The position numbers and the translations under genes are program-made. Shown one piece after another: positions 25,384-42,942 of a stretch of DNA of 64,000 bases. The stretch lies in the NCBI GenBank assembly GCA_947648765.1, contig CANSOY010000001.1, positions 7,016 through 71,015 on the forward strand, given 5' to 3'. Under the pieces are notes generated by a model. That model searched no databases. It saw only the letters and a list, made by a program, of their open reading frames with translations, and was not told the DNA's origin. Origin of the DNA: an uncultured Clostridium sp. (GTDB lineage Bacteria > Bacillota > Clostridia > TANB77 > CAG-508). Numbering within the stretch: the stretch's first letter is position 1; each line of letters opens with the position of its first letter.

Positions 25384-25398
25384 AACTTCTCCACTTCT

Positions 25399-26865
25399 TT
25401 ATCCTTGGTTTGCGATTAAAACACAACGGAAACTATACGAACCAAAAGAATGTCCACTATGGTTTGTAAAATCAAATAGTCCCGTATATTTTCCCCTGCT
25501 ATAATCTCCGCTTCTCAAGAAAAACCCTGCACTGTCTCGAATATAAATCGAGGTTTCTCCAAACCAAGAAGTATAACCGTTTCCTTTTTTGGATGTTTCA
25601 GCAATCGCATCTCCATATCGATTTTGATTAGCATCATAGTTTTGGTTTAAGGCTCCTGCATCCTCGCTGGATGCTTTGTAAACTGTACAATACTTGTTAC
25701 TTCCTGGTTTTTTCAAAATCGAAGAAGCATAGTTCTTCGCCTTTTCGTCCGTTTTTTCTAAATACCCTGCTGTATACTCGCTTGAGCCTCCATTCATATC
25801 ATAGATACCATATAGATTGCCCGTTGTACTGGCTAATTGTCCTTCTTTGGTGTACCACGCATAGGATTTATCCGCATAGTTATCTTGTAGCGCCTCTTGG
25901 ATTTCTTCTACATGGTTAGTCGTTGCAATTACAGTATTTCCCGCATATCCGGTAACCGTTTCTGCTCCTGCTACTGCTTTGGATACTTCTAAATTATTGA
26001 TAGATACTTTCGTTCCATTTCTTCCATATTGGCTATGAGCTAAATAAGCACAAGCCCCCCATTCACTATTCTTCATTAAATGGCTATCCGCTGCTCTATT
26101 CAATCCATACGGGTTTCCATCTTGTGGTAAAGCTTTTGCTAGGTTGTAAATTTCTCCAACAGAAATGTTGTTATAAGAATAGTTTTTTCCTAAAAATACT
26201 GGATAGGTGATTTTGGTGTCTTCTTTTTGGATTTTTCCAAATACATTCTTGCCATCTCTCTCATAGGTTAGATTAGTGTCTACGACTGGGATATTTTCGG
26301 ATGCTGTATTTTTTTGTCCTGCAAAGCCTGCTTCAAATTTAGAAACCCAAATACCTGTAATTTCCTTATCCCATTCGCCATTTGCAAATTGGTTTTCCGT
26401 TCCATCTTGGAAGGCTGGATGTACAATATATCCTAGTTTAGTAACATCTTTCCCTTCTTTATTATAATTCGTCATTCCTTGTAAAAATACAACCTCTATC
26501 TTTCCGGTTTGCTCTTCTCTATCCCATTGAATTTTGTATGCAAACCTTGGTATCCATACCCACATACTACCATCTTGTGTCATAGCATTTGCCCATCTAC
26601 TCGTTCCACCTGCTTCTGTTGCTTCTATTTGACGTATATATTCATACCAAGTTCCTTCTTTTTGTTCTTCTTGTCCTAATACCTTTGGTGTTTCGTTTCC
26701 TTCCTCAAAGGTAATAGCTTTCATTCCTTCTAACAAAACTGGTGGATTTTGGTTTTGGTCTGTTTTGGTTGGTTCGTCCTTCTTTGCAGTCATTACGCCA
26801 AAGGTAATTGCACTAATTCCAATGATAACTAAAATTCCGACAATTATTCCTATTTTTTGTTTCAT
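25399..26865 (-). CDS. membrane-anchored protein with formylglycine-generating-enzyme (FGE/SUMF1)-like domain
   Basis: N-terminal TM. Motifs YGIYDMNGG (compare YGLYDMxGNVWEW) and C-terminal FRCVL (compare GFRCV). Confidence 0.4.
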   Translation of the reverse strand: MKQKIGIIVGILVIIGISAITFGVMTAKKDEPTKTDQNQNPPVLLEGMKAITFEEGNETPKVLGQEEQKEGTWYEYIRQIEATEAGGTSRWANAMTQDGSMWVWIPRFAYKIQWDREEQTGKIEVVFLQGMTNYNKEGKDVTKLGYIVHPAFQDGTENQFANGEWDKEITGIWVSKFEAGFAGQKNTASENIPVVDTNLTYERDGKNVFGKIQKEDTKITYPVFLGKNYSYNNISVGEIYNLAKALPQDGNPYGLNRAADSHLMKNSEWGACAYLAHSQYGRNGTKVSINNLEVSKAVAGAETVTGYAGNTVIATTNHVEEIQEALQDNYADKSYAWYTKEGQLASTTGNLYGIYDMNGGSSEYTAGYLEKTDEKAKNYASSILKKPGSNKYCTVYKASSEDAGALNQNYDANQNRYGDAIAETSKKGNGYTSWFGETSIYIRDSAGFFLRSGDYSRGKYTGLFDFTNHSGHSFGSYSFRCVLIANQG

Positions 26866-26957
26866 TTGTTTTCTCCTCTTTTATCTACTATCTTCATTAT
26901 ATCTTACCACTAGATATTGTCAATCTTTAATTCACTTTTCTCCTTACTTTTTTGCAG

Positions 26958-26986
26958 TTGAACTTTACATAATTTTATGATATAAT
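26958..26986 (+). promoter_or_regulatory. sigma-A promoter (TTGAAC-17-TATAAT); 9-bp perfect IR (27030-27054) lies in its 5' UTR
   Basis: Hexamers with 17-nt spacing. The inverted repeat is acttagtga/tcactaagt. Confidence 0.35.
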
Positions 26987-27165
26987 GATTTCGTACATTC
27001 TATGTGAGCCAAGTGCTAGCATATTGTATACTTAGTGAAGGTCAGTCACTAAGTACCCCCTGCCATTATTTTAGGAGGGATTTATAAATACAACTGTTCA
27101 AAGTTTCCATCAAATTTGAGCAAAAGGGAAAATGGAGCGAGCGAGAAACAGATCTCGAAGGCTAT

Positions 27166-27618
27166 TTGGTAAAATCGAGTGAAATCGAGGACACAGTGCA
27201 AGGCTATGTTAGCTTGGCATACCCTAATCTATATGGGCATCTCCGCTATGTCAAAGGGTTATATACCCCTTATGGTTCGCTTATTTTTATGCAAATGAGT
27301 AACGCCTTTTCGATTACACCTGTCTGCTACTGTTTTCCCAACCCAGGCGAGCAGGGATATTGGTGTGAATACACCAATGAGTTCGGCTTTTTCCCAATTC
27401 TATCTGGACATGCCTGTTCCTTAGGTCATGCAACTCTCCAGATGGAAGAACTCACTGCTCAAGAAGAAATCTTACAAGAAACATTAGCCTTTTTCAAGAC
27501 AAATGCCAGTGATGCAACTTCTGTGAATTGCGACCTTATGAAAGACACACCATATCTTACGGATTTTCTCAAGCCTGACATTGTTTCCCAAATTGAACTC
27601 CACTGTGGAAAGTGGTAA
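27166..27618 (+). CDS. hypothetical Cys-containing protein in GC-rich cassette (start uncertain)
   Basis: GC-rich ORF on the strand opposite its neighbours, with its own promoter and a perfect hairpin terminator. Confidence 0.3.
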   Translation: MVKSSEIEDTVQGYVSLAYPNLYGHLRYVKGLYTPYGSLIFMQMSNAFSITPVCYCFPNPGEQGYWCEYTNEFGFFPILSGHACSLGHATLQMEELTAQEEILQETLAFFKTNASDATSVNCDLMKDTPYLTDFLKPDIVSQIELHCGKW

Positions 27619-29047: not shown

Positions 29048-32000
29048 TTATTTTAGTCCATTTACTAAGTGATAACAGTTGACAGAGGTAAATACATCTG
29101 TAATAGATAGCCAGCCGGATTGCCCATTATTAAGCGAACCTTTTGTTGTGTTCATGTTATAAATTTGGGTTCCGTCTTCGTTAATATCTACAATCGGCAT
29201 CCAATGCTGATCTCTTGTATAACGGCTTGTTCCGCCTCTTCCGGAGCCCTGTACATGGACAATAACTTCTCCACCATTTCTTAAATGATTTCGAATTTCT
29301 GTTAACTGGCTAGCAGATAACTGGGTTGCAACACCCCCTGGACATCCAGAACCAAGCGCTCTTGTGGTTAGATTGAACTCATAAATGGTTCTTCCCCAGC
29401 CTGGTAGTCTTGTACTTCCATATCCACTTGCAATGGTGCTGGTTGTTGTGCAGAAACATCCTGCATTTGCCATTGTGCTTCCGCCTCCTGATGTTTCATT
29501 TACCCATGGTCCATAGTTTTGTAGGTACCAAGTATAGGTTTTTCCATTGGAACTGGTATAAGTTTGGAATTCATAACCAGAAATGGATGTTGAACCAACC
29601 GTTCCTCCAGATCTTTCTTCATAAGTAAAGATTTCTTGCTCATTGGCAGCTGTTCTAGTGATTGGTTTATTTGGTGCATAATCAAACATCGCAAGTTGTG
29701 CTGCTGTGTAGTAAATATATTTTGTTCTAGCAAATAATTCTCCTGCTGGTGATTGACTATAATCATAAATTCCTTTTACATAAGTTTCAAAAGTAGCATC
29801 TCGTGAAGGAATATGACCTGGTGCGCCACCACCTAATTTGCACCACCAGTTATCCCAAATATATCGGTTGTGCTCCCATGAGTTAATCTCATAAAGACCT
29901 GCGCCTGCTTCATATACTTGTTTGAAGGTTTTGCCATCTCTCGTTGGCAAGTGTCCAAAATTATAGGCAATCGCAGTTAATGCCCATTTTTGTTGCATGG
30001 ATAGTTGAAGTCCTGCTGTATCGGTATTTACTTTGTTTAGGTATACAGATTGTAGTTCTTCTCCAATTTTATCCACTAATTCTTTTTCAATGTAAATTTG
30101 GTAACTTGCTACTTCTGCATTGGTATATTCTGCTTCATGTCCTCTTGGTAATTTACTACCTACATATTGTTCCACACTGTCGACTGTTTTTTCTTGTCCA
30201 TTTTCTAGTACTTTTCCTTGTTTATTAAACTGACTATGGTGGGATTTCCACTGGATATCTGCATTTCCAATGGTTGGCCATCCAACACCATCGCCATACA
30301 TTAAATAATATTTTCCGTCCGTGGATTGTGGTGCTTCTCCAGAGTGTGCAAATTGTCTTAAATAGCCTGCAAGTCCGCCCATTAGACCACCTGCACTGCT
30401 GAAAGAGTCTGTTCCAAAGATACTTAAATCTAAGGAAGTAACACCATAACTTCTTCCAGTTAAGCGATAAAGAATATATCGCATAACGGTTTCATAGATT
30501 TGAGTTCTTTCACTCGAACCCAGTAGTTTGAATAACAATTCTGCTCCGGTTACTAAATTCTCTTTTGGAGATAATGGAGCACTACTACCTGGTACTTTGT
30601 ATAGGATTAGGTTTCCTTCAACAACACGACCGGCATTTACGCCTCCCACTGGTGTTGTGGTAGTGGTTGCAGTTGTTCCATTTTGCTCTCCTGCATCTGG
30701 CTCTGTTGCTCTTAAGGCAAAGTTAAAGTCTTGGCGACAACGGTTTGACGAAGTAGCGCCTGCCTCTTGGATGGCTTCTGTATAGCCACAGTTATAGTAG
30801 AGTCCGCCCCCTGCATAAATCTGGATATGCCCGTATTGATGTCCTTCATTATCGTTCATAATGATTAAATCGCCTGGTTGGATGGCATCAAAATTCGTAA
30901 TTACCTCCCAACCTGCCGGTGGGCTATTCACAAAGAAACTAACGGTTTTCTGGTGTCCACTAAAGGTCGCCTTATATCCTGCTTCATAAAGAACCCAAGA
31001 AACATATCCGCTACAATCAATGGTTCCATTGGAGCCAGATACTGGCACATTACCAGTTGCTCCATAAGTATATCCATTACTTGCAACATATTGCTTACAT
31101 TCTGCTGCCTTTTCTAAAATGGTTCGTGCAAAACCAGTTACTTGGCTAATATCTATCTCTTGTGCTGGTTGTGAACCTGCTGTTGCACCTGGCAATTCGC
31201 CTGTATTGCTAACAATAAAGCCAAGGAAGGCATCGGTATTATCGCGCAAACTAGTAGTTCCTGCTTGCCATGTTTGGTATCGGGTCGTGGTTGTAACCGT
31301 TCTTTTATTTTCGGTTAAATCTACCTTTTCATAGGTATAGGTTGTTACATTTTGCGTCGTTGTGGTGTTTGTCGTGGTATTGGTTACTGGTACTTGATTG
31401 GTTTCTGTATTGATTAAACGATATTGTCCCATTTGGTCTGGCTCGTTGGTTACGACTGGGTCTGGTGTCTGTGTTTTATCCGTAAAGATTGGCTCTACTG
31501 TTTTTTCAACAAACAAGGTTCTCGCCTCTGTTACAATCGGTGTAATCGCAGTAAAGTAGCTTACTTCTGTTACAGGGTCTTCATTGTAATCTGTTGTCGT
31601 TACGACTGGGTCTGTTGTTACACTTCCGGTTTTGGTATAGGTACTAACCGTTCTTTTTCCAGATAGTTGTGTCGTGGTAGTCGTTGTGGTTAAGGACTCT
31701 AAAATGGTAATTTCAATGGTGGTATTTTTCGTATAATCCGCTAGTGCATTCACGAATTCTGGGCTTTGTGTAATTAAGCATAAAGCCACAAAGAACTCAA
31801 ATGGTGTCGAATATGGAGATACCATCATCATATAGTTGAATGGATATTCTTCTAACGTATTGGTACCATCGGAAGCAATATTGGATTTTGCAATGATAAA
31901 ATTATCTCCATCCATTGCGAAATAGTTTCGTGCTGCTGAATTTTGATTCGCAATCATACTTCTAAGATTGTCTAGTTCAGTATAGGTTAATTGATTCGAG

Positions 32001-32161
32001 GTTCCATCGGTATTCCCTCTCTTTAGGGTAATGACCCCTTGAAGCCCATTTCCTCCCATGTATGGATAAGAAGTTACAATTTCTGCTTCCATCCAATTCG
32101 TTAGATATTCCAGATTTCCTCCTAAGTTCAATTCTCCCGCATCCAGTCCTACTGCTTCCAA
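29048..32161 (-). CDS. large secreted peptidoglycan hydrolase (CHAP/NlpC-P60 domain, Thr-rich linkers, C39-like C-terminal domain); CwlT/TcpG/PrgK-like
   Basis: Catalytic Cys motif IDCSGYVSWVL...H. Poly-Thr linkers. 1037 aa. Confidence 0.55.
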   Translation of the reverse strand: MEAVGLDAGELNLGGNLEYLTNWMEAEIVTSYPYMGGNGLQGVITLKRGNTDGTSNQLTYTELDNLRSMIANQNSAARNYFAMDGDNFIIAKSNIASDGTNTLEEYPFNYMMMVSPYSTPFEFFVALCLITQSPEFVNALADYTKNTTIEITILESLTTTTTTTQLSGKRTVSTYTKTGSVTTDPVVTTTDYNEDPVTEVSYFTAITPIVTEARTLFVEKTVEPIFTDKTQTPDPVVTNEPDQMGQYRLINTETNQVPVTNTTTNTTTTQNVTTYTYEKVDLTENKRTVTTTTRYQTWQAGTTSLRDNTDAFLGFIVSNTGELPGATAGSQPAQEIDISQVTGFARTILEKAAECKQYVASNGYTYGATGNVPVSGSNGTIDCSGYVSWVLYEAGYKATFSGHQKTVSFFVNSPPAGWEVITNFDAIQPGDLIIMNDNEGHQYGHIQIYAGGGLYYNCGYTEAIQEAGATSSNRCRQDFNFALRATEPDAGEQNGTTATTTTTPVGGVNAGRVVEGNLILYKVPGSSAPLSPKENLVTGAELLFKLLGSSERTQIYETVMRYILYRLTGRSYGVTSLDLSIFGTDSFSSAGGLMGGLAGYLRQFAHSGEAPQSTDGKYYLMYGDGVGWPTIGNADIQWKSHHSQFNKQGKVLENGQEKTVDSVEQYVGSKLPRGHEAEYTNAEVASYQIYIEKELVDKIGEELQSVYLNKVNTDTAGLQLSMQQKWALTAIAYNFGHLPTRDGKTFKQVYEAGAGLYEINSWEHNRYIWDNWWCKLGGGAPGHIPSRDATFETYVKGIYDYSQSPAGELFARTKYIYYTAAQLAMFDYAPNKPITRTAANEQEIFTYEERSGGTVGSTSISGYEFQTYTSSNGKTYTWYLQNYGPWVNETSGGGSTMANAGCFCTTTSTIASGYGSTRLPGWGRTIYEFNLTTRALGSGCPGGVATQLSASQLTEIRNHLRNGGEVIVHVQGSGRGGTSRYTRDQHWMPIVDINEDGTQIYNMNTTKGSLNNGQSGWLSITDVFTSVNCYHLVNGLK

Positions 32162-32444: not shown

Positions 32445-33548
32445 CTAAAAGTTTACATACAATAGTACTTTTTTGTTATAGTTTGCTTTATTTTCACTTG
32501 CTAGATATCCCTCATAATCCAATACAGCGTTGGTAAAGCGGATGGAATTGGTCGTATCTTTTCCGGTATAGGCTTTGTTAAACTTAATCATAAAGGTTTT
32601 CACTTCACCTGGTTTTACGACTAATACCTCTTCGGTTAATTCATGGATATAGGAAGTATAGGTAACATTTCCTTCCGTTCCGCCAATTAAATACGTTGCA
32701 TTGGTATTTTCTTTTGGGTCTAAGCAAATGCTTTGCTGTGTATCATTTTTGACACTGATATTAAATTGCTCATATTCGCTATATACATCTTTTGCATTGA
32801 CTTGAACAATCACGCCATAAGCAGAAGAATATTTTCCAATCTTTTTTCCGCCAATGAAATTATTGATAGCAAGTACATATTTTCCATCTATTTTATCGAC
32901 CGTAACATAGTCTTCGATTGCTCTTAGTTCGTCATTGCCAGACTCTAGTAAGTTCTCATACAAACGGACACGGTATGTCCTTCCATAAGGCCCATTCATC
33001 CAACTTAATAGTTCACTTACTTTTCTGGTTTGGAATTTACTTGCATAATAGTTTTGGCGAAACTGTTCTTCGGTTTGAAAAACTTCTTCTCGGCATCTTT
33101 CGGAAAGCATAGAATATGCTTCCGTTACTTTGCCTTCATTGCAATAGGCAATAAATTGCTTAATCGCTGTTTCTTCATTTTCGATATTGGTTGTGGTAGA
33201 ACCACTAATTTCATTTACTTTTTCTTTTTCAATGGTTTGGTTCGCAACTGGGTCGCCGACTTGGTTAATTAGGTTTTGCGCCATTTCATTGGCTAAAACA
33301 CGGTTTTCCAGTTCTTTTTGTTTGCGGTTTTTTACCATATTATTGAGAAATTGAATGACAAGGAAAAAAGAAACTATTGCTGCACAAATTGTTAATACTT
33401 TTTTCCTATGTTGGTTAAAATATCTAATCCATTTGTTAAACATAATAGTTTCTCCTCCAACATTGGTATCACTATACCAATTTATTGATTTTACGAACGC
33501 CGTTAGCAACCATTTCAGCATCTTCTTCCGATAGTCCTTTTGCTTCAA
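32445..33548 (-). CDS. hypothetical bitopic membrane protein (VirB8-like candidate)
   Basis: N-terminal TM plus an extracytoplasmic domain of about 300 aa. Call rests on position in the cluster. Confidence 0.35.
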   Translation of the reverse strand: MKQKDYRKKMLKWLLTAFVKSINWYSDTNVGGETIMFNKWIRYFNQHRKKVLTICAAIVSFFLVIQFLNNMVKNRKQKELENRVLANEMAQNLINQVGDPVANQTIEKEKVNEISGSTTTNIENEETAIKQFIAYCNEGKVTEAYSMLSERCREEVFQTEEQFRQNYYASKFQTRKVSELLSWMNGPYGRTYRVRLYENLLESGNDELRAIEDYVTVDKIDGKYVLAINNFIGGKKIGKYSSAYGVIVQVNAKDVYSEYEQFNISVKNDTQQSICLDPKENTNATYLIGGTEGNVTYTSYIHELTEEVLVVKPGEVKTFMIKFNKAYTGKDTTNSIRFTNAVLDYEGYLASENKANYNKKVLLYVNF

Positions 33549-35976
33549 CTAATCTCTTCTTTAATGCTTGGACATCTTTTTCACTCTTATAAGTAGATGC
33601 AAGTTTGGCAACTAAAATTCTTTTTTGTGAATCATCCTCTCCAAATTCTGCTCCTAGGCTCATTGCCTCGATAATCATTTTGTCGTCAGTAATTCCTTCT
33701 TTACGATATGCTTTAGATGCTTCTAGTTTTTCTTTATATCCTTCAGAGCCAAATTCTTGAATGTATTGTTGTCTAACTTCTCTACTAGCAATCGTATGCT
33801 CATCTGCTTGTTCTTGAATTCTATCTTGATATGCCTCTGTTCCAAGTCGTCCTTCTTCAAAAGCATTACGAAGTTCATCTGTTCTTCTACTATCTGCACG
33901 CATTGCTCCTAGGGCTGTTCCCGCTAAGTTTCCGCCTACTGCATTACCAGCGATAAGTCCTGCGCTGATAGAACTGGTTGCATTTTTTCCTCCACTTGCT
34001 GTGGTTGCTATTGCTGCTGCTGTTAGTCCAGCTGTGATACCTGCTGCTCTACCTGCTAATTTCACACCACTGGATGCAATAAATCTAGCTCCTTTTGCTG
34101 CTCCCAAAGCAACATCTCGTTTTGTTGGCATATACGTTGCTGCTACATTTTTAATTCCTCGTCGAATGCTTGGTGCAGTTCCATCATTTCGTATCGTTCC
34201 TCTTAATGGGGTCGAACTTGCAGCTCTTGCTTGTACTTCTCTTCTTGCTTGTGCTTGTTGTTCTCTTGCTGTATTGGATAAAAGTAGTCCTGAATTTGGG
34301 TCTTGCCTAAATCCTTCTTGTCCTTCAATTTGACTTGCAAGGCTACTTCCTACTCCTCCACTTCCGCTCGTAGAGCCTCCTCCTGGCAAGATAAGTCCGC
34401 TTCCACCGCCAGAGTTTGTTCCTCCAGCACTTCCACTTGTTAAGCTTCCACTTGGACTAGTTATTAGTGTAGATGCTGCTCTTTGTCCACCAGATGCTAG
34501 AATTGGGGAATCACTTGCTCCTCCTGCTGTTAATGTTGGAGCAGCCTCTTCTTCTCCTCCTAGGAGTTCATTTGCTCCACCTTCTCCTCCTGCTCCAAGT
34601 TGACGTCCTTGATTTCGGTCAAAACTGTTCGTAAGCATACCATTTACACCATTTGCATTGGTATTTTTCTGGGTACGAATTTTCCCACGGTTGTTTTCTT
34701 TTTCTGGTTTTTCTTTCGTCTTTCCAATTCGTTTTACCATATCTAAGCCCTTCATCATCATAGCACCACCAACGGCTGCATCTGCAATGGAAGCAGTTTG
34801 TGCTTTTTCAAATCCGAAGAACCTTCTAAGTAGTTTTTCAGCTGGGATTAAGAAGCCAATCGCTACAATCGCATAGATTGTATTTTCTGCTGCAAAATCC
34901 ATTGCTGAGCCGATTAGAACGGTATATAGTAATAAATGGAATGGTTGTAATAACAAGTTGAAAATATATTCTTTTAGCCACATATCAAAGGCTTGGGCTT
35001 TTCCATCATTCATTTTATCGATTGGGTATGTTAGGGCTACAACTGGTGCAATCATCGTTAAGAATGCCATATATACCACACGTTTCAAGTATTGGAACAA
35101 GAACACAACCGTATAGATAATGAATACAAAGTAAATAACCGTGTAACCAAATTGCATTAGTTTGGTATCTCCACTACTATTTTCGTTAATCATTTGTAGT
35201 TGAATTCTAGATTGCCCCATAAAGTTCGTAAGCCATAAGGTATCTCCTGCATCTCCATACTCATTTCCAGAAGACAAGGTGTTGTTTGAAATAATCGTTG
35301 CAATATCTCCCTCTTGCTTGTAGTTGCTAAGGTCGCCTACATTAACAACAACATCTTTTAAGTTTTCTTTTAGCGCATCTGTAATGGCTTCTGTTAAAGT
35401 AATTGCAAAATACATGATATAGTGCATCATGAAGAGTAGGAACATGGCAACGAGCCAATCCATTAATCTTTCTTTGTATTTTGCCTTTTCTCCTGCCGCA
35501 CTACTAAATAGAATACGAATTCCTATATATACGAGAACTGATAGTAATCCTACAATCGCAAAGTTTCGTAGTGCTACATACCATTTCGCAATATTTTCTT
35601 GTAAGATAGCAGCTGACGACTCAACTGGTGTACCGCTTCCGTCTTGTGCCGTATAGGTATTTGGTTTAAAGAAGTTTACATCTAAGATTGGTACTTCATT
35701 GGAAAAAATCTCTTGTGGAGATAATCCAAATACCGGTAAATAGAATGTATCTGGCTTTGTTAAATTTTTTACGGTAATGCCGACGACGACACCTGCTCCA
35801 ATAGCAGTTACAATTCCTACAGTTAATACCTGTCCTACAACTGGTATGAACTGTAGAGCTACAAGTCCTACTGCTGTTCCAATTCCTACAATCCAGCCAA
35901 GGATGGTAGAACCAATGCCAGAACTGGTGCTAAGTACAATAAAGGAAGACTCTAGTCCATAAACCATTTTTTGCAT
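33472..35976 (-). CDS. polytopic membrane protein with Gly/Ser-rich linker, VirB6/TrbL-like (Tn916 Orf15/TcpH/ConG analogue)
   Basis: About 8 TM helices followed by a low-complexity Gly-rich region. 834 aa. Lies next to the VirB4-like ATPase. Confidence 0.45.
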   Translation of the reverse strand: MQKMVYGLESSFIVLSTSSGIGSTILGWIVGIGTAVGLVALQFIPVVGQVLTVGIVTAIGAGVVVGITVKNLTKPDTFYLPVFGLSPQEIFSNEVPILDVNFFKPNTYTAQDGSGTPVESSAAILQENIAKWYVALRNFAIVGLLSVLVYIGIRILFSSAAGEKAKYKERLMDWLVAMFLLFMMHYIMYFAITLTEAITDALKENLKDVVVNVGDLSNYKQEGDIATIISNNTLSSGNEYGDAGDTLWLTNFMGQSRIQLQMINENSSGDTKLMQFGYTVIYFVFIIYTVVFLFQYLKRVVYMAFLTMIAPVVALTYPIDKMNDGKAQAFDMWLKEYIFNLLLQPFHLLLYTVLIGSAMDFAAENTIYAIVAIGFLIPAEKLLRRFFGFEKAQTASIADAAVGGAMMMKGLDMVKRIGKTKEKPEKENNRGKIRTQKNTNANGVNGMLTNSFDRNQGRQLGAGGEGGANELLGGEEEAAPTLTAGGASDSPILASGGQRAASTLITSPSGSLTSGSAGGTNSGGGSGLILPGGGSTSGSGGVGSSLASQIEGQEGFRQDPNSGLLLSNTAREQQAQARREVQARAASSTPLRGTIRNDGTAPSIRRGIKNVAATYMPTKRDVALGAAKGARFIASSGVKLAGRAAGITAGLTAAAIATTASGGKNATSSISAGLIAGNAVGGNLAGTALGAMRADSRRTDELRNAFEEGRLGTEAYQDRIQEQADEHTIASREVRQQYIQEFGSEGYKEKLEASKAYRKEGITDDKMIIEAMSLGAEFGEDDSQKRILVAKLASTYKSEKDVQALKKRLVEAKGLSEEDAEMVANGVRKINKLV

Positions 35977-36235
35977 AATGGTAACAATCGTATCTCCGAA
36001 GACCTAAGAATAGAGCCTGAATTGGTGTCCATAAAACACCACCAACCCATTCTGCTGCCTCATATCCCATACCTGCTGCTGAAGTTTGACCTGCTACAAC
36101 ATTGGTAGCACTAGGCGTTGTGGTAGTATTGGCTGCCCAGTTAATTTGCGGAGATATAAAGTTAAATAATATGATAAATACGAGAAGAAAGATGACTTTC
36201 TTCATGATATGTTTCTTTTCTACTAATGTTTCCAT
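35930..36235 (-). CDS. small secreted hydrophobic protein; may be the frameshifted N-terminus of the downstream VirB6-like protein
   Basis: Signal peptide MKKVIFLLVFIILF. Overlaps the next ORF by 46 nt in a different frame. Confidence 0.3.
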   Translation of the reverse strand: METLVEKKHIMKKVIFLLVFIILFNFISPQINWAANTTTTPSATNVVAGQTSAAGMGYEAAEWVGGVLWTPIQALFLGLRRYDCYHYAKNGLWTRVFLYCT

Positions 36236-36247
36236 ATCATCCTCCCA

Positions 36248-38263
36248 TTAAATTCCTTCTTTTTTCTTTCTCATTTGCATTAGTTTATTTAAGTTTGTTT
36301 CCACAAATTCAAACTCTTTGGCGGTTGGTCGGATTTCAATAATGGCTGTGTCTGCTCCAACTTTTAGCAAGCCTTCTCCTTTTAAGCAAGTTACTAAGAA
36401 GCCTGCCTCTCCTTCACTTAGTTTGAATACTTCTTTGAGATATTGAATTTCCGCTTTATCTTGTGCTAGGAATAATTTTGTGTCGGATGAAGTTAATACC
36501 GCTTGTGCTTCTGGTTTCTCATAGAAGTCTTGAAATCTTTGGGAAATGATGGCTAGGGAAACATTTCTCTTTCTGGCACGACGTGCCATTGTGTTTAAGA
36601 AATCTACTGCTTCTGGATAAGGAAGGAGCATCCATGCCTCGTCGACAAGTACTCTTTTCTTAGCTGCTTTACGTTTATCTTCACTATTTTTCTTTACATA
36701 TTTCTCCCAAATCCAAGCTAGCAGAATTTGCTGTGCAAGTGGTCTTGCAAATCTTTCCTCTAGTTGAGAAATATCTAGGTTAATAAACAAGGTTCCGTCT
36801 AATAAATCGAAGGTAGATTGTCCATCAAAGTATGCCATTTGTCCTTCATATTCACGGATGTATTGTTTCATAACTTTTAGTAAATAACTATAATGGAATT
36901 TATAGTCTGAGTTATCATTTGCCATTGCTTTTGCTTGAATTCTCTTATACCAAGAACCGATGGTAGGCATTTGTTTTTTGGTTCTACCAAGTAAGTTGCC
37001 AGACATCATATCTTTGGTGGACTCAAATAGGCTGTTTGGGTCTGCTGTAATGCCAAGTGCTGCATATTCTTCGCCAACTGCTTCTGCAATAATTTGCTTG
37101 GTAAGTTCGTTTACATCTTGGCTTCTGGTACTACCTCTTGCCATGGTTAATAGGGCTTGAGTAACATCCTCAATTTTATTTTCTACATTAAGTACTAATC
37201 TTTCTTTTCCGGTAATTTCGTCCTTGGTAACCTCTGTTTCGATATCGAATATGTTGATAACAGTTTTTGATGTTGGGGAAAGAACCACGTTAATTCCACC
37301 CAAACTCTCTGCCACGATACGGTACTCACCTTCTGCGTCAAGTGCTAGACTTTGAATGCCCATTAGTACAGCAGAGCGTGAAATTAAGGTTTTCATGGTT
37401 ACAGACTTACCAGCACCAGATTTTGCGAAAATTACCATGTTGTAGTTGGTAAGTGAGGAATGGAAGTTATCAAATAAAATTGGTACTCCCGTTTGTTTAT
37501 TAAATCCAAGTGGGATACCAGTTGGATGTCCTACCTCAGAAGTCGTAAACGGAAATACGGTTCCCATCGAATTACGGTCAAATGTATGTGTTTTGTGGAT
37601 TTTGTCATCCATCAATGGTAGATTGGACTTGAAAGCGTCTTCTTGCATACCCCATGCTGTTTTTACGCCTACCAATGATTTCGACATTTCCGTTGCAAGT
37701 AGTTTGGTATAACGGTCTAAATCCTCTAAGTTATACGCAAACAAGGTGGCTACTACGGATGCGTCATACAACTTATTGAAACCTGCTGCAATTTCATCTC
37801 TTAGTTGCTCTGCTTCTAATCTTTTTTGCGTAATGGTACTCTCACGGTTAATGTTTCCTCGGTCTGCTGCCACAATTCTTTCCGTTTCAAGTTCGTTAAT
37901 GACACGGTTTAATTCGTTTTGCGATTTCGACTCTTGAATTGGGTTAATGTAAATGGAGGTGTTAATATCTCCAAATAGGTACATATCTCGAAATAGTTCT
38001 GGGAATGTACACATTCTAGGAAGTGCAGATACAAAGAAACTTCTTGCATAACGTGTTACATTGGATATAATCTCTAAGTGGTCAATGTTACTTGCATCAA
38101 TTCCAGATGGTGCAATGAGTTCTTTGATGGTTTTCTTTTTCAAAATCTTGTACTCATCTGGCTTTGTGTAGTCACTATACGGTCTTCTTTCTTCTACCTC
38201 TTTTTGTTTTTTGGCCATCTGGTGTTTCTCCTCCTTTTTCTTGATTTTGCTTTTGTTTATCAA
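36248..38263 (-). CDS. VirB4/TraC-family conjugal-transfer-type ATPase (likely true start ~38218, MAKKQ)
   Basis: Walker A AKSGAGKS and Walker B VLVDEAWML. 650-670 aa. Confidence 0.7.
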   Translation of the reverse strand: MINKSKIKKKEEKHQMAKKQKEVEERRPYSDYTKPDEYKILKKKTIKELIAPSGIDASNIDHLEIISNVTRYARSFFVSALPRMCTFPELFRDMYLFGDINTSIYINPIQESKSQNELNRVINELETERIVAADRGNINRESTITQKRLEAEQLRDEIAAGFNKLYDASVVATLFAYNLEDLDRYTKLLATEMSKSLVGVKTAWGMQEDAFKSNLPLMDDKIHKTHTFDRNSMGTVFPFTTSEVGHPTGIPLGFNKQTGVPILFDNFHSSLTNYNMVIFAKSGAGKSVTMKTLISRSAVLMGIQSLALDAEGEYRIVAESLGGINVVLSPTSKTVINIFDIETEVTKDEITGKERLVLNVENKIEDVTQALLTMARGSTRSQDVNELTKQIIAEAVGEEYAALGITADPNSLFESTKDMMSGNLLGRTKKQMPTIGSWYKRIQAKAMANDNSDYKFHYSYLLKVMKQYIREYEGQMAYFDGQSTFDLLDGTLFINLDISQLEERFARPLAQQILLAWIWEKYVKKNSEDKRKAAKKRVLVDEAWMLLPYPEAVDFLNTMARRARKRNVSLAIISQRFQDFYEKPEAQAVLTSSDTKLFLAQDKAEIQYLKEVFKLSEGEAGFLVTCLKGEGLLKVGADTAIIEIRPTAKEFEFVETNLNKLMQMRKKKEGI

Positions 38264-39386
38264 TCTTATTTATCGCATCTTTTGCTACATCCGTTCCAAT
38301 CATGGTTGCATTTTCTTCTAAGATAATTTTTGCTAGCTGGTCGATTAAATCGTCTACATTCTCTTGTTTTTCTTCGATTGCTTTTTGCTTTTCGGATTTT
38401 ACTTCTGTAATGAGTTGGTTTGCTTTTTCAAATGCTTTTTCTTCAATTTGCTTATCCAAAATGCGGATTTTCTTGTCGAGTACATCTGGTGCTGTTGAAT
38501 AAAGTTCGTCAAATCCTGCACGAAGTGCTTTATCGATTCCATAAACCTCTGCTTCGTCACGGTTGTATGCTACATAGAGTAGGTCTGCAAGGTCGTCCGA
38601 ATTCAATACCTTAGCATTCACACCACAAGCTGCAATCGTACGAATAATGGATTGTGCTCTCGTATATAACTCGGAGAAAGATAAATTACGAATTTCCTCT
38701 TTATCAAAAGAGTTTTGTCCTAATTCGTCTGCATAGTATGGAATTACAATATAGTATTTTTGGTTTAATACATTTTTGTTCAAACTCATTTTTTCGGTGT
38801 TATAGATAATGTCTTTTCCATACTCATATAGGTTGGTTTGTTTGGTTAGTTCAAATTGTGCCTTCTCCAACTCTTCTTTTGGATAATTGCCTGAATTCAC
38901 CATTTTCGTATATTCGGTTTTGGCTTTTTCCAAATTATTTTCTAATTCTTCAATTTTCGATTTATAGGTCTGAATACTGCTCTCTAGGTTAATCGTTCTG
39001 GTTTGGGTATAGATTTGGATGGGATGACGAAGTGTATTTAAGAATTGTACAAACCCTTCTTCTACCGCATTTTTTTCTAGTTCAGACATAAGGTCATAGT
39101 TAATTCCTTGACACTCCACTACCATGATATATTTCATTCCATTTTTTACTTCAATCATATTATCCGTAATGGTATCAAATTCCATAAAGTCTTCCACTGG
39201 TTCTTCTGGTACTGCTCGTTTGCTACTTTCTTTTCTCTTGTCTGTGCTTTCTGGTATCGTTGAAGATTTGCTTTCTTTTCCTTTTTTGGATTTGAAATAC
39301 ACTAAGAATAGCACGGCAAACAGCATAACGATTGCAATTACAATGATAAATAAAATCATCGTTAGTGTGTTAATATCATCAATCAT
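38175..39386 (-). CDS. hypothetical bitopic coiled-coil membrane protein (T4SS-like cluster)
   Basis: N-terminal TM, followed by coiled-coil-rich sequence and a basic C-terminal tail. Confidence 0.4.
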   Translation of the reverse strand: MIDDINTLTMILFIIVIAIVMLFAVLFLVYFKSKKGKESKSSTIPESTDKRKESSKRAVPEEPVEDFMEFDTITDNMIEVKNGMKYIMVVECQGINYDLMSELEKNAVEEGFVQFLNTLRHPIQIYTQTRTINLESSIQTYKSKIEELENNLEKAKTEYTKMVNSGNYPKEELEKAQFELTKQTNLYEYGKDIIYNTEKMSLNKNVLNQKYYIVIPYYADELGQNSFDKEEIRNLSFSELYTRAQSIIRTIAACGVNAKVLNSDDLADLLYVAYNRDEAEVYGIDKALRAGFDELYSTAPDVLDKKIRILDKQIEEKAFEKANQLITEVKSEKQKAIEEKQENVDDLIDQLAKIILEENATMIGTDVAKDAINKIDKQKQNQEKGGETPDGQKTKRGRRKKTV

Positions 39387-39723
39387 CTTTTGTATCCTCC
39401 TTTAGGGTATAGACTTTACGTTTTTTCATTTTGAAAAAGAACGCTCTTTTAATAACATCATCGATTGCTTCTCCGCTAGTTTTTTTCGTAAACTCTATGC
39501 TTGTAATCTCTGGTATCTTGAAGGTTCCAATAATAAAACCAAGTAAAGCAAGGACAGCAAAGATTGCTACGCCGACAACGGTTAGTCCAACGGCATTGAA
39601 GAGTGCGAAAAATAGCACACCAATGCCTCCTAGTATTCCGGTATAAATTAAACTTTTGGTAGAAAAGATAAACAAAATTCTACCTTCTCCCTTTACACTT
39701 CTTGGTAAATTGTATGTTCCCAT
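39379..39723 (-). CDS. small 2-TM protein, VirB3/PrgI-like
   Basis: 114 aa with two adjacent TM helices. Lies near the VirB4-like gene. Confidence 0.4.
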   Translation of the reverse strand: MGTYNLPRSVKGEGRILFIFSTKSLIYTGILGGIGVLFFALFNAVGLTVVGVAIFAVLALLGFIIGTFKIPEITSIEFTKKTSGEAIDDVIKRAFFFKMKKRKVYTLKEDTKDD

Positions 39724-39868
39724 ACAGTTTCCTCCTTTGTATACAACTCTACTAATTTATTATATCAAATAAAGTCTAGAATTGTAATAGAAAACAGAAA
39801 AAAAGTGCATTTTCATGCACTTTTTCATATAAATGTTATGGATTTGTAATCTTTTTGTCATACTAATT

Positions 39869-40249
39869 TTAGCCAGCAGTAATTTGACTAGCCATTTTGT
39901 AGATAGCACTTGCGATGTTAACACCTGCGAAGATTAGTACTGCGCCAATGATGTATGGTAACATAACTTTCTTGTATTCTGCTTTTTCAGAAGCACTACC
40001 CATCATGTATTTAATACCTAGTACAACGATAACACCTACTGCTACTAAACTTCCTACTACTTGGATAATACCAATGATTTGTTCACCAATACCTTGTACT
40101 TGTGTACCAGCTCCTGTATCTGGTGCGATTTGGCTTGGGTCATAAGCTAGTGCAACACTTGCTAAAGATGCAACCATTACAACTACTAGTGCGATTGTAC
40201 CAATCATTTTTAAGGTTCTTGTTTTCATATTCAATTTCACCCCTTTCAA
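39869..40249 (-). CDS. VirB2/TrbC-like pilin-type small secreted protein (paralogue A)
   Basis: Signal peptide, then a hydrophobic helix, a charged loop (KYMMGSASEKAEYKK), and a second hydrophobic helix. Confidence 0.45.
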   Translation of the reverse strand: MKGVKLNMKTRTLKMIGTIALVVVMVASLASVALAYDPSQIAPDTGAGTQVQGIGEQIIGIIQVVGSLVAVGVIVVLGIKYMMGSASEKAEYKKVMLPYIIGAVLIFAGVNIASAIYKMASQITAG

Positions 40250-40300
40250 GTTTGAAATTTTATTTAAAATCTCTTTTCAGAAATGTTAAAAACTTTTTTT

Positions 40301-40696
40301 CTAACCGAGTGCATTTCCAAGCACTTCTACGACTAATTTCCACATAGTAAATCCACCAAATAAAACGATACAGCCGACTACAAAAGGAATTAGAATTTCT
40401 TTTACATTTGCTTTGTCTTCTGCTCCTCCTGTCATGAACTTGATGCCTAAGTAGGCTGCCATAAGGACTGCCACTACACTTCCGAGTGGAATTAAAACAC
40501 CTAATATTTTATTGGACATTTCCACCACAGATGTTTTACTTAAGGTATCGTCTGCTCCAGGTGCTTGCACTCCTTTGGTAATAAAGGAATCTGCTCCTGA
40601 AATCAAGTCGCTCAAGGCATAGGACTGGCTAGTTGGGATAAGCAAGATAAGCATTACAAGACAAATACAAATTAACATCTTTTTTGCTTTTTTCAT
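40301..40696 (-). CDS. VirB2/TrbC-like pilin-type small secreted protein (paralogue B)
   Basis: Same architecture: LGIKFMTGGAEDKANVKE between two hydrophobic helices. Confidence 0.45.
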   Translation of the reverse strand: MKKAKKMLICICLVMLILLIPTSQSYALSDLISGADSFITKGVQAPGADDTLSKTSVVEMSNKILGVLIPLGSVVAVLMAAYLGIKFMTGGAEDKANVKEILIPFVVGCIVLFGGFTMWKLVVEVLGNALG

Positions 40697-40757
40697 TTCT
40701 TTTCCCTCCTATCCTTTTCATTATACCACAAGTTGTAAAATCTTTCAAGTTTTACCA

Positions 40758-41126
40758 CTAATGTATCGATGTAACAACATCATAAATGACTTTCGGGAAG
40801 ACGGTTCCAGTAAAAACAATGACTGCTCCAATGACATAAGGTATCATACTTTTCTTGTAATCTGCCTTTTCTTGCGCACTTCCTAACATATAGCGAATAC
40901 CCAGTACAATTAAGACAATCACGGCAATAACAGAGCCAATCACTTGTAGAATACCGAGTAATTTTCCTGCCATAACTTGTGCCTCATTTGGCATCGTTGT
41001 TGTAGTTGGTTGTAATGCACCTGGGTCGCTAATTACCCAGCTTGCTTGACATGGAATGGTTGCAATATGAATAATGGCAAACAGTATGACAAAGACAAAA
41101 AGGATTTGACCTATTCTTTTTTTCAT
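40758..41126 (-). CDS. VirB2/TrbC-like pilin-type small secreted protein (paralogue C)
   Basis: Same architecture: LGIRYMLGSAQEKADYKK. About 50% identical to paralogue A in the C-terminal half. Confidence 0.45.
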   Translation of the reverse strand: MKKRIGQILFVFVILFAIIHIATIPCQASWVISDPGALQPTTTTMPNEAQVMAGKLLGILQVIGSVIAVIVLIVLGIRYMLGSAQEKADYKKSMIPYVIGAVIVFTGTVFPKVIYDVVTSIH

Positions 41127-41277
41127 CTTGCTCTCCTCCTTACTTTAATATACCTTATCCTAATTGTAAAGTATTTTGACAGGTTTTGCAATATTTTTTT
41201 GTATTTTTGTTTTTTTGCAAAAAGAAAAGGGAAAAGAGCGAAGCGTCAGTTGCTGCTTCACTCTTTCCCTTTTGGCT

Positions 41278-42942
41278 TTAGTTCTCTATGACACTGGGTA
41301 AAGAAAAGGCTACTTTTTCCGGCTTGTAGCTGATGGTTGCCTCCAGGCTGGTGGATACATCCCACTTATCTTCTGCTCGGTAACTGGTGTGGGTTTGCAG
41401 TTCTTCAATCTGGTACTGGTTGTTTGCAATCACTTTCGCATAATTGGGATGTCCAGAAATCTGGTCGCCCCTTTCAATCAAGTGAATGCGGTGGTTATCC
41501 TTGTTTTCGTACATTTCCAGATACATATCTCCGCACATACCCATTTGCCAGTTCGCATTTAAGTAGGTTTCCGTCCCAAAGGACTTCAAAATCTCGTACA
41601 GCCTCGGTGCATTTTCAATCCGAAGGACACCGATGTCTGTCCAAATGAACTCATCATCAAAGATGTAAGTTCCAGCTTGGATTTCGCTGTCTGCCAGTCC
41701 TCGTTTGATATACTCGATGGAAATTCGGTGGTAGGCTTTTTCGTTCAGGATTTGCTGTTGACTACATACAATGTAGTAGTTGTCAACTTGCTTTTGACTG
41801 TGTGCCATTACTACGGCTGAGGTATTTACGGTTACTCTTGCCGAAAACTGTTCTGGTATGTGGAGTTGGTGCCAAGTTTCATTGGCTTTTTCGACGTCCT
41901 CTAAGGTCGCCGCTTGTGTTTTTTCTCCATTCCAGAAAGAGATTTCATTGGGGTGATCTTTCCAATTATATGGATTTTTCCGTTCCAGGTTCACCACTCC
42001 GATGTCGTAGGTTTCGCCGTAGGCTACTTCCATAACAAAATTGTAGACGGTATCACCTTCGTTTTCCGCATAATTGGCTGTCATACTCCCAATTTCTTCT
42101 ACGTTCCCGGTAAGCATTGCCATTCCGGTATCATTTTTCAGGGTCATGGTCGTGATACCGCTTCCAGCCGAGTAGGCTTGGACTTGCAACTCACCCATTC
42201 GTGCTTCCACATAAGAAACATATGTAGTGAGCAGGTAGTTGCTCAAAAGTTCCATCAAATGGTCTTTTTGGGTTCCTGTGATTTCTCCCAGAATGGTGTA
42301 AATGGGACTACTGCCATCTGCTTTCCAGAAATACATGCCGGGGGCAATACTATACTGGCTTGCATGGAAGCAATCCTTTTCTTGCACTTCCAAGAGATAC
42401 CACTGTCCGTGCTCTTTGTCAGATGTGCTGTAGACATCAATCTGTCTGGTTTGCGTTTTTCCCAAGCACCGCTCGCCAATATAGGCGGTGGCACCATAGG
42501 TTTCTTCTTCCACGATGGTCATGTGATAGTTGACGACCGCTTCGGTCATGTGGTTCCACCGACCGATTTGTTGCATTTGGCTAACATCGCCGGCGATTTT
42601 CGGGTCGCCCAACGTAGCTCTGGTGTGGTTTGCAAAAAAGATGTCTTCGCTGAGGTCCGTGGTTTCGACGGGGCTCCATGCTTTCGGCTGGGTTTCGGGG
42701 TCTACTACCTCATTCGGGTGACCACTTAAGTTGACGGCTACGAAAATGAGGATCCCGATTAAGAGCAGGGTCAGTAGGATGACCATCACCATGAGGACAA
42801 TTCCTACTACATTTCTCTTTTTCCGGGTGCGCTTGCGAGCGCGGTTTTGCTTTTTCTTTTCCATGTTCATTACCCTTTCTATGTTATGATTTTTGGTTGT
42901 GGTTTCGGGGTATCTTGAAAACTTTGCCTCCTTCCAATACAT
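41278..42942 (-). CDS. hypothetical signal-anchored extracytoplasmic protein, GC-rich gene (probable start at MNMEKKK ~42870)
   Basis: Basic N-terminal tail followed by a TM helix. GC content is well above that of the neighbours. Confidence 0.4.
   Translation of the reverse strand: MYWKEAKFSRYPETTTKNHNIERVMNMEKKKQNRARKRTRKKRNVVGIVLMVMVILLTLLLIGILIFVAVNLSGHPNEVVDPETQPKAWSPVETTDLSEDIFFANHTRATLGDPKIAGDVSQMQQIGRWNHMTEAVVNYHMTIVEEETYGATAYIGERCLGKTQTRQIDVYSTSDKEHGQWYLLEVQEKDCFHASQYSIAPGMYFWKADGSSPIYTILGEITGTQKDHLMELLSNYLLTTYVSYVEARMGELQVQAYSAGSGITTMTLKNDTGMAMLTGNVEEIGSMTANYAENEGDTVYNFVMEVAYGETYDIGVVNLERKNPYNWKDHPNEISFWNGEKTQAATLEDVEKANETWHQLHIPEQFSARVTVNTSAVVMAHSQKQVDNYYIVCSQQQILNEKAYHRISIEYIKRGLADSEIQAGTYIFDDEFIWTDIGVLRIENAPRLYEILKSFGTETYLNANWQMGMCGDMYLEMYENKDNHRIHLIERGDQISGHPNYAKVIANNQYQIEELQTHTSYRAEDKWDVSTSLEATISYKPEKVAFSLPSVIEN

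Follow-up and report, generated by a model that had tools for sequence, protein, structure and literature searches.

Predicted VirB2-family pilins encoded with a relaxase-less type IV secretion machine in uncultured gut Clostridia

In a 64-kb stretch of the genome of an uncultured Clostridium sp. (contig CANSOY010000001.1 of assembly GCA_947648765.1, positions 7,016 to 71,015; hereafter the window, in whose coordinates all positions are given), three adjacent genes on the minus strand encode small membrane proteins that are very probably VirB2-family pilins of a type IV secretion system (T4SS). The genes for the rest of a T4SS machine follow directly. We think that the cluster is probably a chromosomal, vertically inherited, and domesticated T4SS that does not conjugate, rather than a mobile element. 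This is because neither a relaxase nor a coupling protein is encoded nearby and because a whole lineage of gut Clostridia has the cluster as a fixed part of its core chromosome. The first-pass annotation of this DNA, which described the pilin genes, did not see this wider context (chromosomal, without a relaxase nearby, and lineage-wide).

The first-pass annotation read the three proteins as VirB2/TrbC pilins, and Pfam bears this out. For PF18895 (T4SS_pilin), paralogues 1, 2, and 3 score 29.4, 27.9, and 37.4 bits, respectively, so all three pass the gathering score of 26.6. The cut-off of PF04956 (TrbC/VirB2) is 27.9 bits; paralogues 1 and 3 pass it, with scores of 40.1 and 33.0, and paralogue 2, with 27.4, is short by 0.5 bit. 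Precomputed annotations agree with the pilin assignment. In the same Pfam scan, no holin or immunity family, which is where a better match might have been expected if the pilin reading were wrong, scored comparably on the three proteins. The only NCBIfam model that they touch is NF045849 (Mbov_0395 pilin-like), at 20.8, 24.3, and 22.0 bits. These scores are under the 40-bit equivalog cut-off, so the proteins are not members of that family. The Mbov_0395 protein, from an integrative and conjugative element (ICE) of Mycoplasma, is similarly a small pilin-like protein of a monoderm that is encoded beside a VirB4.

We also compared a profile of 31 family members to the sequences in the PDB. The sole biologically sensible match was Agrobacterium VirB2 (E = 0.19), with the LGI(K/R)YM.GS motif of the family opposite GISWMFGRAS of VirB2. 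When the family profile was aligned to mature A. tumefaciens VirB2 with hhalign, both helices aligned (E = 6.8e-4; part of the VirB2 sequence is confirmed by the PDB alignment). Fold searches with the pilin model gave nothing informative.

The three consecutive open reading frames (ORFs) of 122-131 amino acids that were first described are minus-strand ORFs at exactly the positions reported. For paralogue 1, there is a choice of starts: TTG at 40249 (39869-40249, 126 amino acids) or ATG at 40228 (119 amino acids). The ATG is more probably correct because it has a Shine-Dalgarno sequence upstream (GGGGTG) and because it is the start in the precomputed gene calls of five metagenome assemblies, independent of one another, which encode identical pilin proteins. 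Each of the three genes has its own ribosome-binding site. The proteins have pairwise identities of 32-44%, with 26 invariant columns in their alignment, and their E-values against a hidden Markov model (HMM) of the family are between 1e-36 and 3e-50, which places their paralogy far beyond chance.

All three proteins have a basic N-terminus, a hydrophobic signal-like segment, a hydrophilic stretch of 20-35 residues, a long hydrophobic helix, a loop, and a second hydrophobic helix. Alignment, hydropathy, and the helical hairpin in the AlphaFold 2 (AF2) model all agree with the shared architecture that was claimed for them at first (signal peptide, helix, loop, second helix). By alignment and hydropathy, the N-terminal segment spans roughly residues 3-30 and is followed by an A-x-A-type site (CQA/S, SYA/L, or ALA/Y, with the slash at the expected cut); the small-x-Ala position is kept across the 31 homologs. 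The AF2 model of the 122-amino-acid copy (mean pLDDT 76.7) has a signal helix at 2-23 and a hairpin of helices at 47-81 and 84-121. The loop motif is [KR][YF]M.G[SG]A.[ED]KA.[YV]K[KE]. The motif as first written is present in all three paralogues, except that its first residue is R, not K, in the 122-amino-acid copy. The net charges of the loops are +2, 0, and +2, with paralogue 2 being the neutral one.

Using the pilin alignment, we scanned a set with a single genome for each species. This found at least 392 relatives, and we retained 79 loci. All 79 are from records labelled as uncultured Clostridia or as "Clostridium sp." metagenome-assembled genomes, and they come from the guts of humans, mice, rabbits, chickens, and ruminants. 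Across these 79 species-level genomes, the gene order (from HMM and phmmer searches) is invariant: the pilin array, PrgI, TrsD, VirB4, the VirB6-like protein, a 332-amino-acid membrane protein, and usually a cell-wall hydrolase. The placement of PrgI after the pilin array is kept in 80 loci. In the sister species L006, synteny extends from nrdD through the hydrolase and includes three orthologous pilins (pilin 3 is 65% identical). The arrays contain 1-7 pilin genes, most often three (55/82 arrays), and the smallest are probably cut off at contig ends. The median identity of paralogues within arrays is 41%. In public data, the pilin family forms over 6,400 clusters at 50% identity, and the window's pilins recur, identical in sequence and with the same chromosomal surroundings, on many contigs from mouse-gut metagenomes.

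The cluster is always found among housekeeping genes, and two chromosomal settings recur. In 23 loci, as in the window, the cluster adjoins yqeY and two M16 peptidase genes. In about 32 of the 79 loci (among L011-L089 and L092), the origin-proximal genes yidC-jag-mnmE-mnmG-rsmG-parA-parB-DUF4446 lie directly before the pilin array. For instance, in L092, a (rpmH-rnpA-yidD-) block through parB runs straight into four pilin genes.

Two loci depart from this otherwise rigid arrangement. L092 has an rve-family insertion sequence between the pilin array and PrgI (L092 11846-13191), and L062 has two pilin genes after VirB4 instead of before PrgI (L062 14373-15136). Poly-pilins also occur among the relatives: P0080 (450 amino acids) has one signal peptide and five in-frame pilin hairpins, and P0084 (222 amino acids) has one signal peptide and two pilin hairpins; P0103 (134 amino acids) is listed with them. 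Solved conjugative pili have five subunits per layer, and the match with P0080 may be a coincidence.

The machine genes belong to a recognizable class of T4SS. The class-specific partners of MPF_FATA systems are all present: VirB4, PrgI/TrsC, TrsD, a VirB6-like protein, and a hydrolase. Since all of the NCBIfam scores are under the equivalog cut-offs, we consider the machine to be a divergent member of this class. The TrsD-like protein has an N-terminal transmembrane segment and a domain that resembles the N-terminal domain of VirB4. We considered whether the TrsD and VirB4 genes are a single VirB4 that was cut by a frameshift, and we rejected this, as about 79 loci keep the arrangement, which MPF_FATA systems are known to have. 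The VirB4 of the window also has a weak match to the NCBIfam model for CedD. The 1037-amino-acid hydrolase is predicted to be the functional equivalent of VirB1/PrgK. At the corresponding position, related loci encode NlpC/P60, Amidase_3, or lysozyme/M15 hydrolases.

The VirB6-like gene has two peculiarities. A pilin-like hairpin lies within its 834-amino-acid part (amino acids 136-198, window 35383-35571, …LVYIGIRILFSSAAGEKAKYKERLMDWLVAMF…; pilin HMM, E = 1.9e-5). The pilin HMM detects this internal hairpin in 68 loci, and PF18895 detects it in the homologs from L009 and C. botulinum. It may be a built-in template for the docking of pilins. Also, relative to the sister species, a 1-nucleotide insertion at window 35990-36005 breaks the gene into ORFs of 101 and 834 amino acids (GGTCTTCGGAGAT instead of GG-ATTAGGAGAT). 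The insertion is not in a homopolymer, and it is not a sequencing error, given that it is identical in all four of the assemblies that align over the site (4/4). The 834-amino-acid remainder retains an ATG start and is under purifying selection. A separate ORF that resembles the 101-amino-acid fragment is found in L089.

We compared the genes of the window to those of L006 by the ratio of nonsynonymous to synonymous substitution rates (dN/dS); synonymous sites are saturated in this comparison, with dS of 0.6-1.8. VirB4 has a dN/dS of 0.018 and 97% amino acid identity, as compared to 93% for NrdD. The ratios are 0.055 for PrgI, 0.077 for TrsD, and 0.144 for the VirB6-like protein, and they are 0.17-0.34 for the pilins (0.170 for paralogue 2 and 0.235 for paralogue 3). 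Judging by these ratios, the machine is constrained as strongly as core metabolism, and the pilins evolve faster than the machine while still being under purifying selection.

Each pilin has a 1:1 ortholog at the same array position in L006, which implies that the triplication predates the split between the species. Paralogue 1 is also orthologous to the pilin that adjoins PrgI in 64/81 other loci. Its codon usage is unlike that of any other gene in the window: 64% of its two-fold codons end in C (counted over Tyr, Asn, Phe, His, Asp, and Ile), with 69% GGT and 100% GTT/GTA. Its dS of 0.63 is the lowest in the cluster. Because of the distinctive codon usage and the low dS, we tentatively suggest that paralogue 1 is a highly expressed major subunit.

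Among the pilins, there are two or more subtypes that differ in structure and that are kept across species. In other species, proteins of the B-type class, to which paralogue 2 belongs, often have a hydrophilic extension of 100-300 amino acids after the signal peptide, ahead of a pilin domain at the C-terminus; we found 43 such long proteins. In solved conjugative pili, the termini of the pilins face outward. If they do so here, then the extensions of B-type pilins would decorate the filament, which suggests that the B-type copy could be a minor or adhesive subunit. The first-pass annotation proposed a "heteropolymeric or variable" pilus. Given the 1:1 orthologs and the conserved subtypes, heteropolymeric fits better, and variable fits less well. 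The patterns of orthology and selection thus favor three non-redundant paralogues that would be specialized and co-assembling subunits, over interchangeable antigenic variants.

The rest of the window is ordinary chromosome, with genes for SMC, minDE, rodA, a spo0E-like protein, POR, M16 peptidases, yqeY, nrdDG, and a P-type ATPase, and there is no discontinuity in GC content across the 64 kb. Our search for conjugation genes covered these 64 kb of this genome and 10-kb flanks in the others. The Pfam scan of the window found no relaxase, coupling-protein, or integrase families. Neither relaxases nor integrases were found among the recurrent or the singleton flanking genes of the related loci, and in 79 loci, no Walker-A ORF of the size of a type IV coupling protein (T4CP) lay within 10 kb on either side.

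A search of 72,556 plasmids with paralogue 1 (using tblastn) found nothing. The backbone of the machine does occur on two large plasmids, L090 (C. botulinum plasmid p12/29, NZ_KT897275.1) and L091 (a plasmid of B. thuringiensis Bt407, NC_018878.1). Both encode PrgI, a TrsD-like protein, VirB4 (annotated as "DUF87"), a VirB6-like protein, and a hydrolase. Their VirB4 proteins are 42% identical (C. botulinum) and about 30% identical (Bacillus) to that of the window. With the pilin HMM from gut Clostridia, no convincing pilin was found in these plasmid clusters. A 127-amino-acid ORF just upstream of the C. botulinum backbone has a sub-threshold match to PF18895 (E = 0.0027). The strains with these plasmids, being cultured Clostridium and Bacillus, could serve as tractable models.

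The first-pass annotation remarked that VirB2-type pilins are absent from the described T4SSs of Firmicutes, and this agrees with the literature as of 2025. Gram-positive T4SSs are otherwise described as lacking VirB2, and Patescibacteria are considered unique among monoderms in their potential to form conjugative-type pili (2025 reviews; PMC12102498, PMC12857230). When we searched the literature, we came across no account of VirB2 pilins in the T4SSs of Bacillota.

The closest described analog of our cluster is the chromosomal T4SS of Patescibacteria with its arrays of VirB2-like pilins (Wang et al. 2023, as cited in PMC12857230; Quinonero-Coronel et al. 2025, PMC12102498). In that system, VirB4 is nested within MPF_FATA, TrsD, PrgI, and VirB6 are present, and the VirB2 arrays contain 2-11 genes at about 25% identity; there is no relaxase, and the genes are close to dnaA, rnpA, and rpmH (PMC12102498). 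The pilin array was essential in the one strain that was tested (PMC12102498, PMC12857230). By gene content, the two systems are alike. Both are monoderm T4SSs with tandem and diverged VirB2-like arrays (2-11 genes there and 1-7 here) of similarly low paralogue identity, with TrsD beside VirB4, with PrgI/VirB3 and VirB6, and with no associated relaxase. Both are chromosomal and often lie beside origin-proximal genes (rnpA, rpmH, or parAB), as in the roughly 32 loci described above, although the copy in the window is beside yqeY and the M16 peptidases. They differ in that our hosts are Clostridia with ordinary Firmicute housekeeping genes, not ultrasmall epibionts, and in that a large cell-wall hydrolase is usual here, while most pilin-bearing Patescibacteria lack VirB1.

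Other known systems share parts of this arrangement. Agrobacterium VirB2, TrbC of RP4, and TraA of F share the match to PF04956, a long signal peptide, two hydrophobic helices with a basic loop, and linkage to VirB3, VirB4, and VirB6. But their sequence similarity to our pilins is remote, each system has one pilin instead of three or more paralogues, and our cluster has no gene nearby for a TraF-type cyclase or a TraX acetylase. Also, the envelope here is monoderm, without the outer-membrane complex of VirB7, VirB9, and VirB10. MPF_FATA plasmids (pGO1/pSK41 with TrsC-TrsD-TrsE, pIP501, and pCF10) have the same order of VirB3-like protein, TrsD, VirB4, polytopic VirB6-like protein, and peptidoglycan hydrolase. 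They are described as lacking a VirB2 homolog and as relying on adhesins, and they are borne on plasmids or ICEs with a T4CP and a relaxase. In contrast, our cluster has pilin arrays, is chromosomal, and has neither a T4CP nor a relaxase in the DNA that we examined.

Tandem and diverged VirB2 genes are also found in the T4SSs of Bartonella (Trw), Anaplasma, and Rickettsia. Bartonella Trw lacks a coupling protein as well, and Trw pili serve in adhesion. Unlike our Clostridia, these bacteria are Gram-negative and live as pathogens inside cells, and their copies are regarded as interchangeable variants instead of forming stable orthologous classes. The archaeal Ced/Ted systems are similar in being minimal and relaxase-less: their few components resemble VirB2 (the pilin), VirB6, and VirB4 (the ATPase), and they serve in DNA import, not in conjugative export (PMC12102498). 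The envelopes differ, the connection in sequence does not go beyond the weak CedD match, and DNA import is a mere hypothesis for our cluster. The Ced/Ted pilins are reported to have a VirB2-like fold (Beltran et al. 2023).

Given these comparisons, we can propose how the system might work. The pilins would be exported by Sec, and each would be inserted as a helical hairpin with both termini outside and with the basic loop in the cytoplasm. The subsequent steps are modelled on Gram-negative T4SSs. Signal peptidase would process the exported pilins into a membrane pool, and VirB4 would extract the processed pilins from the membrane. The pilins would then polymerize on the VirB6-like platform to form a pilus or a wall-spanning tube, and the hydrolase would open the peptidoglycan so that this structure can cross the wall. 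The most likely uses would be adhesion or cell-cell contact, the uptake of DNA or macromolecules (as in Ced/Ted, in ComB, or as proposed for Patescibacteria), or export, and not conjugation.

A quite different identity for the three proteins, as small membrane proteins of an unrelated kind (holins or bacteriocin immunity proteins, for example) that resemble pilins only in hydrophobic composition, is effectively refuted by the Pfam scores and the synteny. Two-helix hydrophobic proteins do draw weak and spurious profile matches, several of which we saw below threshold. Yet curated thresholds are exceeded for two independent pilin profiles with no competing family, the synteny with VirB3, TrsD, VirB4, and the VirB6-like gene is invariant in 80 loci, and the conserved loop motif aligns with the GI.WM.G region of VirB2. 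If the proteins are pilins, then the cluster might still be the module for mating-pair formation of a conjugative or mobilizing system, with oriT and the genes for a relaxase and a coupling protein in another part of the genome, or else a decaying integrated element; its pilins would be for contact between donor and recipient. The backbone that it shares with the large plasmids of C. botulinum and Bacillus points this way, as do the similarity of its VirB4 to the conjugative CD1110 and ICE families, the frameshift in the VirB6-like gene of this species, and the precedent of Patescibacteria, whose T4CP genes are often far from virB4 (PMC12102498). Nevertheless, we consider conjugation to be unlikely. 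The cluster has the same housekeeping position in dozens of species, without an integrase, a relaxase, a T4CP, or a compositional break in the DNA that we examined; VirB4 is more conserved than NrdD, which argues against decay; and the related plasmids (L090 and L091) are themselves typed as non-mobilizable. Our preferred reading, a domesticated T4SS, has difficulties of its own. The split in the VirB6-like gene may have impaired the machine in this species, and a coupling protein or a relaxase could be encoded elsewhere in these genomes. Also, an equivalent of VirB8 could not be demonstrated. The 332-amino-acid protein downstream of the VirB6-like gene is a possible, though unproven, VirB8 analog: it has no Pfam, profile, or PDB sequence match, just 6 close homologs were found by homology search, and its AF2 model (pLDDT 57, with an alpha+beta pattern) had no significant match in Foldseek.

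The chances that the pilins form an extended pilus, instead of a short conduit, are roughly even in our estimate. A specific version of the latter, in which these VirB2 homologs form a short channel or stalk that is embedded in the membrane or the wall, seems somewhat unlikely to us, but several observations favor it. Several Gram-negative T4SSs need VirB2 yet make no pili, and reviews state that it is needed in many systems that show none; there is a pilin-like hairpin inside the VirB6-like protein, and relatives with 2-5 fused pilin hairpins are better suited to a fixed ring than to a growing filament. Against this, the long N-terminal extensions of B-type pilins suggest exposure beyond the wall, and a high supply of subunits is suggested by the unusual codons of paralogue 1 and by the separate transcription unit (see below); neither is decisive. 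The paralogues could instead be interchangeable surface variants that allow variation in antigens or in host range, a role proposed for Bartonella Trw and for the VirB2 arrays of Anaplasma, and the same idea was raised for the arrays of Patescibacteria (PMC12102498). Consistent with this, the dN/dS of the pilins is above the 0.02-0.14 of the machine, the arrays vary in size and have low paralogue identity, and paralogues 3 and 2 are each preceded by a promoter-like site. We think that this is very unlikely, because the pilins have orthologs at the same array positions in L006, the copy next to PrgI keeps position 1 in those 64 other loci, every copy is under purifying selection, and at least two distinct subtypes are kept across species. 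Also, we saw no repeats, inversion sites, or slippery tracts around the pilin genes.

The locus is a Firmicute counterpart of the Patescibacteria system that the literature has not noted, though Pfam already annotates the proteins. It contradicts the 2025 reviews, in that a Pfam-recognizable VirB2 array accompanies an MPF_FATA-like machine in ordinary gut Clostridia, in at least 79 species. This bears on the question of whether the Patescibacteria T4SS inherited its pilins from the monoderm T4SS that it arose from or took them over from diderm systems (PMC12102498). It also means that the role of relaxase-less monoderm T4SSs with pilins could be studied in a second and larger group of organisms. 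Our results suggest that many abundant but uncultured gut Firmicutes may display an undescribed surface filament, which could matter for adhesion, for interactions between bacteria, or for recognition by the host. More tentatively, and as less likely than not, we raise the possibility that a large lineage of gut Clostridia has a vertically inherited and relaxase-less T4SS that builds VirB2-type pili and that is the Firmicute sister or the source of the essential T4SS of Patescibacteria. If so, then pilin-bearing T4SSs of monoderms are ancient and widespread, and not an oddity of Patescibacteria. An apparatus for contact-dependent exchange with neighbors, or for uptake from them, might also bear on why these bacteria resist cultivation.

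Table 1. Features of the pilin array and the adjoining genes, in window coordinates
Feature	Position	Strand	Evidence or remarks
554-aa N-terminally anchored surface protein upstream of array	41278..42942	-	one transmembrane segment 41-77; membership in system uncertain
Terminator-like hairpin and U-run, between 554-aa gene and array	41215..41273	-	-27.3 kcal/mol, z = -4.2, 0/200 shuffles as good
Sigma-70-like promoter candidate upstream of paralogue 3	41163..41191	-	TTGCAA-17-TACAAT, consensus match only
Pilin paralogue 3 (122 aa), array gene 1, A-type	40758..41126	-	Pfam, AF2 model, L006 ortholog
Sigma-70-like promoter candidate, extended -10, upstream of paralogue 2	40720..40748	-	TTGAAA-17-(TG)TATAAT, 11/12 positions, consensus match only
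Pilin paralogue 2 (131 aa), B-type	40301..40696	-	Pfam; C-terminal motif GC..FGGF..WK
Pilin paralogue 1 (119 aa from ATG), adjoins PrgI, candidate major pilin	39869..40228	-	Pfam, orthology, codon usage
Terminator-like hairpin and U-run after paralogue 1	39790..39826	-	12-bp stem, T-run; -13.8 kcal/mol, z = -1.95
PrgI/VirB3-like membrane protein (114 aa)	39379..39723	-	PF12666 PrgI, E=2.9e-4
TrsD/TraC-like protein (403 aa)	38175..39386	-	precomputed PF26593 TraC-like; NCBIfam VirB4_plasma positions 48-375; weak TrsD match
VirB4-family ATPase (656 aa)	36248..38218	-	PF19044, PF12846, PF01935; NCBIfam CD1110-type VirB4 E=1e-58
VirB6-like polytopic membrane protein	33472..36235	-	NCBIfam MMCAP2_0566 and pLS20_p028; multiple transmembrane segments
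Conserved bitopic protein (332 aa), downstream of VirB6-like gene	32445..33443	-	in 64/80 loci
1037-aa NlpC/P60 cell-wall hydrolase	29048..32161	-	PF00877, E=3.7e-7

The pilin genes look like a separate transcription unit, because the array has promoter-like sites of its own and a terminator-like hairpin on either side (Table 1). Another promoter-like site lies between the hairpin after paralogue 1 and the next gene. A separate unit is expected for subunits that are needed in excess over the machine.

The 554-amino-acid protein that is encoded upstream of the array is only 38% identical to its ortholog in L006, and none of the other 79 loci has it. The GC content at third codon positions is 0.54 in this gene, as compared to about 0.3 in all of its neighbors. 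It may be a recently acquired or a fast-evolving surface protein. We considered whether it is a diverged long protein with a pilin domain, and we rejected this: it has no match to the pilin HMM and no hydrophobic hairpin at its C-terminus.

The distal end of the cluster (window 23965-27618) encodes a protein of 472 amino acids that has a signal peptide, a VWA domain, and a membrane anchor at its C-terminus. Beside it are a gene for a 488-amino-acid anchored protein and, on the opposite strand, an ORF of 150 amino acids. None of these three genes is kept in the other loci.

Across the whole window (1-64000), we found no tRNA, no rRNA, and no Rfam family at its gathering score. The gene for dihydrouridine synthase (window 14584-15601, minus strand) is broken into two overlapping ORFs, which match positions 1-149 and 149-306 of the Dus profile. 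This is a frameshift or a pseudogene in a housekeeping gene.

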